DNA from: Escherichia phage vB_EcoP_PE006
Length of the DNA: 64,000 bases
Strand: one strand, 5' to 3'
Sequence record: OQ938541.1
The notes under the pieces were generated by a model that had not been told where the DNA came from, did not search any database, and saw nothing but the letters and a program-made list of their open reading frames with translations. Below are positions 42,705 through 44,616 of this stretch, one piece after another. Positions within the stretch are counted from its first letter, which is position 1. Every line of letters starts with the position of its first letter. Both the position numbers and the translations under genes were made by a program.

Positions 42705-44117
42705 TTAGTTATTTGTTTCCATGTCAAAAGAGATTCCACGACCCGCTTCATCGGCAAACCGAACTGTACGGGTTTGAGGCTGCAATACTTCAGGGTTGTT
42801 AGCAACAAACCGATCAGCGAGACTGCGGCTGACGGTCTCAGCTAATTCACCATGAGAAGGGATATTAAGATCGGCGAGATTATCAACCACATCTTGGGCC
42901 ACGTCTTCATCAATCCATACAGCCCTAACAGGTGCGTTGAAACTCTGACCAGAGAACTGGTGACGGCTAACAGTCAAACCATTTGATTGATCATTAGAAC
43001 GTCTAGACAACCACTGCTCAAATGAATCGCCAGTAACACCAAGAGCTTCTTCAAAAGATGTTCTACGAGTAGAGCTTAGATTTCGTGACTCTTGTGCTCG
43101 GCGCATTGCAGGGGCTACAAACACCCCTTCAATTGCATTGTGCCGATTAGGTTCATCTTCTCGACCAAGGAGATCTCCTCCTGTATTAGTTGTTAAGTTT
43201 GTCAATCCTTCAGACCAATACGCACGAATCTGGCTAGAGCCATGAACACTTGACATTAACTGAATCTCTTCGTAAGGTATTCCAAAGAATCGACTCATGT
43301 CTCGGTTAACACAATATTGAGCACTTGTTGTATCCTCGATAAGAGCAACCTGACCATGTTCGTTGACCAGATGACTAACCGGCTGAGGTGTGGGAAGGTA
43401 TCGAGTTTGGGCCATATATTGATATGCAACAGATGGAGCTGAGAATCTTAACACTTGTGAATTAGGCCACTTTTTGTGAACGTATCTGATTTCACGACTA
43501 GAAACAACCACAGGGCAAGGAGCGGTCATAGCTAAATATCCATGAGGAGTCATGAATAAATTGTCAAGAGTCATCGCACCACGACACATCATAGGAAAAT
43601 TATCCAATACCTCTTCAATAGAAGTAGGATAATTAAACATGAATTGGATACGAACCCCATTCCACTGAAATTCAATGATATCAGTGAATGTTAATTGAGA
43701 ACCCCCAGCATAGGATTCGTCTGTAGATTCAGCAAGAAGGGATGCATACTCGATATCTTGTGATTCAAGCCACTCTTTCACATTGCTTTCAATCTCTCGT
43801 CCAAGAGCTTGCCAACGATCAACTGTAGTGAAAGTATTTTGAGTCCCTGGCGTCTGTCCTCTGACAATGAAGATATCAATATCGTGAGGTGCTGTGTTAT
43901 TAAGCACGGCATCACGAACAGCCCCACCAGTAATGATGGGACAGATACTGTCTGGAACCAAGTTGTTGTTAATCAGCTGTTCAATGAAATGACGACCAAC
44001 AGTAATATCAGGTTGTTGAGCAACCTTATCTTCAATTTGGTTAATCGGGATAACAATCATTTTACATTTTCCAATATAATGAAGGTGGGTCGTAAGGATC
44101 AAATCCCGTGAGTTCAC
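42705..44117 (-). CDS. nucleotidyltransferase of the CCA-adding / poly(A) polymerase family
   Basis: [26 protein letters not shown] matches the GGAVRD ... D.D head-domain motif. Confidence 0.55.
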
Positions 44118-44616
44118 ACAAGAAAAGATAAACCTTAACGGTTAAGTTAACGTCCTGTTCACAATAAGTAAACATATCTTCAGTGAAAGCATCCCATGCT
44201 TCCTCTTGCTCACCGTAGTCTCCTTTAAGTTCCTCTAAGAACTCACCCCATTGCTTCAAACCATGACCTCTTGGGCCATGTCTAGGGTCGCCTTTCGGAT
44301 ACTCAGGACTGTCACCAATACGGTCAGGTTTAAGATATCGACTAAGACACAAGGTGTCGAAGACGTTAAAATGATATTTAATCAAAGAAGGATACATCTT
44401 CTTCAGAGCAGGTAAGTCGAAGTCAATAATGTTATGACCAACGAGCACATCAGCTTCTGTAAGTTTACGAATCCCATCTTCAATTTGGTGAGGCCGATAG
44501 CCCCACCTTTCACCAGTTTCAACATCGAAGATATAAATACACCATACTTTAGTTATGTCATCGTACAGTGCATTACTCTCGATATCAAATGCAAACACTT
44601 TCTTTTTCTTTACCAC
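44062..44616 (-). CDS. stand-alone 3'-5' exonuclease (DEDDy/DnaQ-like)
   Basis: Exo [11 protein letters not shown], Exo [15 protein letters not shown], Exo [12 protein letters not shown]. Confidence 0.7.

Follow-up and report, generated by a model that had tools for sequence, protein, structure and literature searches.

Among described enzymes, the DNA polymerase of phage T7, gp5, is the nearest match in sequence and structure to the proteins discussed here; it is a single chain of 704 amino acids (aa) with a 76-aa thioredoxin-binding loop and a proven dependence on the host thioredoxin TrxA. For the coliphage phiEco32, RefSeq record NC_010324 lists two separate products, gp74 (phi32_74), named "DNA polymerase exonuclease subunit", and the polymerase gp53 (phi32_53), annotated with the remark "lacks 5'-3' and 3'-5' exonuclease domains". 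Separate exonuclease and polymerase genes were reported for phiEco32 and the LUZ24-like phages in 2012 (PMC3517423, where Savalia et al. 2008 is cited as the source for phiEco32), and the separation has been described for all Kuravirus-like phages (PMC9965538, 2023). S-SBP1-like cyanophages likewise encode a T7-like family-A exonuclease and polymerase by two genes (Czernecki et al. 2023, PMC10201439). Here we analyzed a stretch of 64,000 nucleotides (nt) from Escherichia phage vB_EcoP_PE006 (OQ938541.1; the window), in which a predicted stand-alone 3'-5' proofreading exonuclease of 184 aa is encoded at 44062-44616 on the minus strand, as are all genes, promoter-like elements and the intron named below. 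A first-pass annotation of this DNA had contrasted the arrangement with T7-type polymerases as if these were always single chains, a premise that the phiEco32/LUZ24-like, Kuravirus-like and S-SBP1-like phages contradict; for phiEco32-like phages, annotation and discussion of the split go back to 2008.

The exonuclease open reading frame (ORF) is 97-99.5% identical to its counterparts in dozens of Kuravirus (Gordonclarkvirinae) phages of Escherichia, and shares 98.4% identity with gp74 of the type phage, phiEco32. These matches place the source phage among the Kuraviruses, as a phiEco32-like coliphage of the Gordonclarkvirinae. The ORF starts with GTG at 44616, has a GGAG 7 nt upstream and ends in TAA, and its product, the orthologue of gp74, corresponds to approximately residues 1-209 of T7 gp5. 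All three exonuclease motifs are present in this 184-aa ORF some 9 kb from the polymerase gene, as the first-pass annotation had described. Exo I (residues 8-17) contains D11 and E13, aligned to D5 and E7 of T7; Exo II (HNIIDFD, residues 61-67) contains N62 and D67, aligned to T7 HNGHKYD; and Exo III (YCEQD, residues 151-155) contains Y151 and D155, aligned to T7 YNVQD. The motif residues are kept throughout an alignment of Kuravirus, Aeromonas phage BUCT695, Bruynoghevirus Ab22 and T7. The protein matches Pfam PF01612 (DNA_pol_A_exo1; E = 1e-8, 35.6 bits with the cut-off at 23.6) and PHROG 403, "DNA polymerase exonuclease subunit" (E = 1.4e-38), and its nearest solved structure is T7 gp5 residues 3-178 (E = 1e-11). 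We take it to be a DEDDy (DnaQ-like) 3'-5' exonuclease of predicted activity. Its start overlaps by 7 nt the TAA stop of a T7 gp4-like primase/helicase gene (44610-46400), an arrangement often seen where translation is coupled.

The polymerase gene lies downstream and consists of two exons. Exon 1 (33197-34888, 564 codons) starts with GTG at 34888, 6 nt from its own ribosome-binding site AGGAG, and encodes the thumb, an insertion of about 50 aa, the palm and the fingers with motifs A and B, ending at the His of motif C. Exon 2 (32437-32589, 50 codons and the stop) continues from the DE of motif C to the C-terminus ...NWMHTH, which corresponds to ...NWAICH in T7. PF00476 is the sole Pfam match of the polymerase, T7 gp5 is its nearest solved relative, and the alignment to gp5 begins at about residue 210 and continues onwards. 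An AlphaFold2 (AF2) model, built with 79 homologues in the alignment for an intron-less orthologue that is 99% identical (P0001), has a predicted local distance difference test score (pLDDT) of 92.3. In this model the two long thumb helices come first, T7 polymerase chains are the top structural matches, and no RNase-H-like exonuclease fold is found. Pfam, the T7 alignment and the AF2 model thus rule out a hidden exonuclease domain, and the proposal of an exonuclease-less polymerase was borne out. The extent given for it, 33197-34888, needs revision: the product does begin in the polymerase domain, but 33197 is the predicted 5' splice site of an intron rather than the end of the gene, and coordinates that stop at this boundary leave out exon 2.

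Concatenated, the exonuclease and the spliced polymerase are collinear with T7 gp5: one BLASTP alignment spans the junction (residues 11-329 of the concatenate against T7 residues 5-373, E = 8e-21). The break maps to about T7 residue 209, within the linker that joins the exonuclease domain to the thumb. On the fused-polymerase profile PHROG 17 the exonuclease covers positions 668-826 and the polymerase 836-1185, consecutively and without overlap. The split has the appearance of a clean fission at a domain boundary, and at the level of the genes the first-pass claim of a separate exonuclease beside an exonuclease-less T7-type polymerase holds. In addition to Exo I-III, the pair shares with T7 gp5 motif B (RDNAKTFIYxFxYG) including the T7-like tyrosine, Y526 in T7 (RDNAKTFIYAFNYGAG compared with RDNAKTFIYGFLYGAG in T7), and the polymerase shares the C-terminal NW...H; it also has an insertion at the site where T7 gp5 binds thioredoxin. 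It differs from gp5 in being made as two chains, in the length of that insertion (about 50 aa) and in further insertions at polymerase residues ~150-215 and ~320-365. Each gene is intact and can be translated on its own, their products are collinear with gp5, and no catalytic residue is missing.

From the exonuclease stop to the polymerase start there are 9,173 nt (34889-44061), with about 27 ORFs that encode a nucleotidyltransferase, a dCTP deaminase, a Dps-like protein, a thioredoxin, ThyX, PhoH and many small products. Compared with these 9.2 kb, the equivalent gap amounts to ~8.0 kb in phiEco32; in BUCT695 it is 6.2 kb long and in Ab22 1.9 kb. Around it, the order of genes is kept in Kuravirus, Grimontviridae and Bruynoghevirus: an amidoligase cluster, gamma-glutamyl cyclotransferase, primase/helicase, the overlapping exonuclease, variable cargo and the polymerase, the adjacency of primase/helicase and exonuclease being found in BUCT695 as well. 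Within the subfamily, exonuclease orthologues of at least 60% identity occur in 96 phage records and polymerase orthologues of at least 80% in 97, indicating that the arrangement is not due to chance. More widely, the best 120 polymerase homologues, with identities down to 33% and LUZ24-like "DNA polymerase part II" proteins among them, are all 374-618 aa long, which is too short for a fused exonuclease domain. The exonuclease-less clade comprises 243 records in the phage collection, 105 from phages of Pseudomonas and 93 from phages of Escherichia, with Aeromonas, Proteus, Salmonella, Cronobacter and Vibrio as the remaining hosts. We infer that one old fission may lie behind the split in the three phage groups.

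The relatives differ in detail. In phiEco32 the orthologous genes stand in the same order among the same neighbours, and the spliced polymerase is 99% identical to gp53 without gaps; the phiEco32 polymerase gene is intron-less and its gap is shorter, as given above. The LUZ24-like phages (Bruynoghevirus), with "DNA polymerase part I" and "part II", appear to carry the same fission: their exonuclease gene overlaps that for primase/helicase, their exonuclease-less polymerase is 38-40% identical to that of the window and has an insertion of 48 aa at the thioredoxin-binding site, and the LUZ24 polymerase gene likewise carries an intron. In contrast to the window, they have a gap of just ~1.9 kb and a shorter polymerase (545 aa), and no phage thioredoxin was found in them.

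To place the two genes in the temporal program of the phage, we located the promoter element tAATGTAtA, which is recognized by the phiEco32 gp36 sigma factor at middle and late promoters and has been mapped at genes 68, 58 and 40 (PMC8948821). Three such elements on the coding strand of the window coincide with the expected sites of the published middle promoters P68, P58 and P40: AAATGTATA, with one mismatch, upstream of the gp68 homologue (41513-41521), and the perfect element TAATGTATA upstream of both the gp58 homologue (36457-36465) and the gp40 homologue (30200-30208). The exonuclease gene is upstream of the first of them, while the polymerase gene is downstream of the element at 36457-36465 and of a terminator-like hairpin at 36070-36093. 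In the classification of SU10 and phiEco32, genes 69-125 are early and genes 25-68 middle (PMC4281155). Judged from the positions of the elements, the exonuclease and the primase/helicase are probably early genes, and the polymerase and thioredoxin middle genes.

The phage thioredoxin that the first-pass annotation had pointed out (39689-39961, 90 aa, CAPC) is a genuine member of its family (PF00085, E = 2e-13). It aligns to E. coli TrxA only over residues 24-105 and is without the N-terminal beta1-alpha1 unit; it retains CxPC, the context of the cis-proline (SIP) and a glycine at the position of E. coli G92. By what we take to be the TrxA numbering, ~20 N-terminal residues are missing and the positions that differ from TrxA include W28, W31, G33 and G74. 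A change of G74 in TrxA abolishes its support of T7 growth. On the side of the polymerase, the insertion of ~50 aa follows the thumb helix, which ends in ...LLPKM, and precedes the conserved FDPSK motif (FNPSS in T7), at the site where T7 has 76 aa and where Taq and Klenow polymerases have ~5 aa. Its C-terminal half can be aligned with T7 (REDIGGAFTCVEYVDFDPS compared with REYVAGAPYTPVEHVVFNPS in T7), in what we assume to be the part of the T7 loop that holds the suppressor and cross-linking positions E319 and T327. In the AF2 model of the orthologue the insertion is an ordered alpha/beta element (pLDDT ~90) and not a floppy loop.

The insertion and the phage thioredoxin are distributed differently. 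All 79 aligned members of the clade, Pseudomonas phages included, have an insertion of 48-52 aa. Homologues of the thioredoxin were found in 125 records, nearly all from phages of enterobacteria with the prolate C3 morphotype, in all of which it is kept, and a few from Achromobacter or uncultured phages; among these 125 records there was none from a Pseudomonas, Aeromonas or Vibrio phage. Since the insertion is equally kept in relatives without a homologue of this thioredoxin, it does not depend on the phage thioredoxin, and on this comparison it cannot have evolved specifically to bind that protein. An obligatory pairing of the thumb insertion with the phage thioredoxin is not supported by the distribution. 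The polymerase may have the thioredoxin of the host as its partner, or that of the phage, or none, and a role of thioredoxin in its processivity is plausible but unsupported.

Taken together, we consider it quite probable that the two proteins form a non-covalent, gp5-like heterodimer in which the exonuclease proofreads in trans. According to this model, the gene of a T7-type family-A replicase would long ago have been broken at the linker that leads from the exonuclease domain into the thumb, so that the DEDDy proofreading domain would be made as a separate protein of 184 aa. The exonuclease gene would have stayed in its ancestral place behind the primase/helicase gene, as T7 gene 5 follows gene 4, and the polymerase body (thumb, palm and fingers; 614 aa when spliced) would be translated from its own ribosome-binding site 9.2 kb downstream, variable nucleotide-metabolism genes and small genes having accumulated in between. 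The two proteins would then reassemble into a gp5-like holoenzyme, in which the exonuclease would edit mismatched primer ends passed from the polymerase site as it does in the fused enzyme; host TrxA or the truncated phage thioredoxin could clamp the half-length thumb insertion and raise processivity. A two-subunit enzyme would agree with the annotation "DNA polymerase exonuclease subunit" and with the published model of the S-SBP1 pair, in which AF2-Multimer sets exonuclease and polymerase exactly as in an uninterrupted relative (PMC10201439). Like the pair in the window, the S-SBP1 pair is a two-gene T7-like family-A polymerase with a thioredoxin-binding loop of about half length, for which a heterodimer is proposed. 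The S-SBP1 fission differs in being recent and independent, caused by a frameshift that left the genes adjacent and overlapping, whereas that of the window appears old, is common to three phage groups and separates the genes by kilobases. A functional analogy is provided by E. coli DNA polymerase III, in which the alpha (DnaE) and epsilon (DnaQ) subunits are a separate polymerase and DEDD proofreader in one complex; DnaE belongs to an unrelated polymerase family (C), with a different interface and evolutionary origin.

Two points weigh against a heterodimer. The activity of the exonuclease is a prediction, and membership in different temporal classes, which is probable here, would be unusual for obligate subunits. 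Proteins made early persist, however, and read-through of early transcription is possible, which may soften the temporal objection. Single-sequence AF2 applied to the concatenated exonuclease and polymerase gave a pLDDT of 34.9, too low to speak for or against docking. The distance of 9.2 kb and the probable difference in timing would also suit an exonuclease that is free-standing and serves recombination, end processing or the degradation of host DNA, with the polymerase unbound and without editing of its own, as would the coupling of its gene to that of the primase/helicase rather than the polymerase. We regard such a role as unlikely, because the protein is a precise orthologue of the gp5 N-terminal domain that ends exactly where the polymerase begins, and because its gene is at the same place in every examined genome with an exonuclease-less polymerase. 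Furthermore, the stability of family-A polymerases is reported to require the exonuclease domain, and re-association is predicted for a comparable split pair (PMC10201439); the phage also has separate 5'-3' exonuclease genes for other tasks (PMC9965538). That the two ORFs are joined into one chain by trans-splicing, a split intein or a programmed frameshift, or that the split is an artefact of sequencing or assembly, is most improbable. The polymerase gene does hold a splicing element, a group I intron, but the exonuclease ORF runs to its TAA without any extension of intein type, a strong start of its own (AGGAG-N6-GTG) serves the polymerase, and ~27 ORFs intervene. Proteomics of SU10 detected the polymerase at 69.2 kDa compared with 69.1 kDa predicted, indicating that it is unfused. 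We therefore excluded joining of any of these kinds, and the recurrence of the arrangement in ~96 independently sequenced genomes argues against an artefact.

A further possibility, compatible with the gp5-like heterodimer and not a replacement for it, is a three-part enzyme in which the truncated phage thioredoxin binds the shortened thumb insertion as processivity factor in place of host TrxA. Coupling of the thioredoxin of prolate podophages with the polymerase, leading to processivity, was proposed in 2021 (PMC7881722). In its favor are the ~50-aa insertion at the T7 thioredoxin-binding site with its resemblance to the T7 loop, the conservation of the thioredoxin in all C3-morphotype phages, the location of its gene in the same middle-gene block as the polymerase, and the retained CxPC, SIP context and G92-equivalent glycine. 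The presence of the 48-52-aa insertion in Pseudomonas and Aeromonas relatives without a homologue of this thioredoxin speaks against it, as do the N-terminal truncation, the presumed changes at W28, W31, G33 and G74, and the ordered alpha/beta structure of the insertion. For the half-length loop of S-SBP1, AF2 predicted no complex with host thioredoxins (PMC10201439). On balance a three-part enzyme is a tentative and rather doubtful proposal. It is quite unlikely, going one step beyond, that the split serves regulation, with the exonuclease produced early alongside the primase/helicase, the polymerase and the truncated thioredoxin produced from middle promoters, and all three as parts of a replicase whose proofreading or processivity would be tuned in the course of infection by subunit stoichiometry.

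The interruption of the polymerase gene has the hallmarks of a group I intron (32590-33196, 607 nt) and separates the His codon from the Asp codon in motif C (HDE). The ORF that begins at 34888 runs into ...VIDMH KLHCACKSW*, and a short ORF behind an internal homing endonuclease ORF reads M DEGQFSV...NWMHTH; excision of 32590-33196 yields a protein of 614 aa that is identical to the intron-less phiEco32 gp53 at 605 of 614 positions, without gaps. The internal ORF (32710-33105, 131 aa) encodes an HNH endonuclease (PF13392 HNH_3, E = 8.6e-12; PHROG 6254, E = 1.8e-41). By eye, a P1 helix could form between ATGCAT in the exon and GTGCAT in the intron, which would put a U.G pair at the splice site; the last bases of the intron are ...AAATG, with a terminal G. 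At gathering thresholds, Rfam gave no match anywhere in the window; a relaxed scan of 900 nt gave a partial match to RF00028 that includes the AUGAUAUAGUCC core (28.7 bits, E = 3e-5, short of the required gathering score, 50) and is split because of the ORF inserted in the intron, and a weak second alignment assigns the ATGCAT and GTGCAT bases to P1. Compared with phage SU7, the non-coding parts of the intron are almost invariant, whereas the HNH ORF is visibly more diverged. Splicing of the element is a prediction from its sequence.

The intron is inserted at the motif C His codon, presumably the equivalent of His881 in E. coli DNA polymerase I. The T7-like phages PhiI and W31 have polymerase-gene introns at "site 881" (PMC3428280, citing Bonocora and Shub 2004), presumably the same His codon of HDE, and these also contain an HNH-type ORF; the window intron differs in its host gene, which encodes an exonuclease-less Kuravirus polymerase. 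It is present in only nine phage records, the closest to this region being phage pEC-N1203-2Af.1 (100% identity). The intron-bearing records annotate two "DNA polymerase" coding sequences and an endonuclease, without an intron feature, and no paper that mentions both an intron and Kuravirus was found among those searched. In these Kuraviruses the two coding sequences should be annotated as one that is spliced. In several relatives a second break in the exonuclease-less polymerase occurs near residue 450-460: in BUCT695 (L005, 22705-25174) the polymerase is in parts of 460 aa and 103 aa with an endonuclease gene between them, and many metagenomic homologues are ~450 aa long (P0011, P0015-17, P0057-60). 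Bas93 has an "endonuclease VII" inside its polymerase gene. Homing elements seem to have a hot spot in this polymerase gene.

As a discovery the split carries little weight, since the two-subunit interpretation and the thioredoxin idea are both already published. The 2023 claim to have seen the splitting of a family-A polymerase "for the first time" misses the older phiEco32 and LUZ24 reports. Our analysis adds the order of helicase, exonuclease, cargo and polymerase common to three phage groups, the clade-wide occurrence of the thumb insertion beside a thioredoxin all but confined to prolate phages, an intron that is unannotated in public records, and the probable assignment of the two genes to different temporal classes. 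No paper naming both Kuravirus and trxA was found among those searched. The Kuraviruses nevertheless offer a convenient and unexploited experimental system, and members that grow on E. coli K-12 are available in the BASEL collection (Bas86-94). They could be used to ask whether a family-A polymerase can be proofread in trans, and whether its half-length loop recruits a thioredoxin and, if so, that of the phage or that of the host.

Some further features of the region were recorded. Within codons 10-19 of the polymerase gene there is a perfect extended sigma-70 consensus (TTGACA-17 nt-TGaTATAAT, 34833-34861); no second perfect TTGACA-N17-TATAAT occurs in the 64 kb. The sequence is the same in phiEco32 and EcoN5, while the -35 element is lost in SU7; because the -35 element is not conserved there, we consider the consensus probably fortuitous and did not retain a regulatory role for it. 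Just upstream of the polymerase gene are two neighbouring paralogous ORFs, 35491-35775 (94 aa) and 35777-36028 (83 aa), whose C-terminal 40 residues are 55% identical (...GKFISY...PFPKG; BLASTP E = 1e-15). At the opposite end of the intervening block, the nucleotidyltransferase gene (42705-44060, 451 aa) begins 2 nt past the exonuclease stop; its product has a weak match to the PolyA_pol head domain and matches PHROG 12715 (E = 2e-257), and the gene is present in Kuravirus and absent at the equivalent position in BUCT695 and Ab22. Finally, four paralogous ORFs of 65-69 aa share the pattern MKK.W...TR..AR..KK...G....Y, with pairwise BLASTP E values down to 4e-9. Three of them are in tandem (41964-42161, 41755-41964 and 41546-41755), and the fourth (39483-39692) adjoins the thioredoxin gene.

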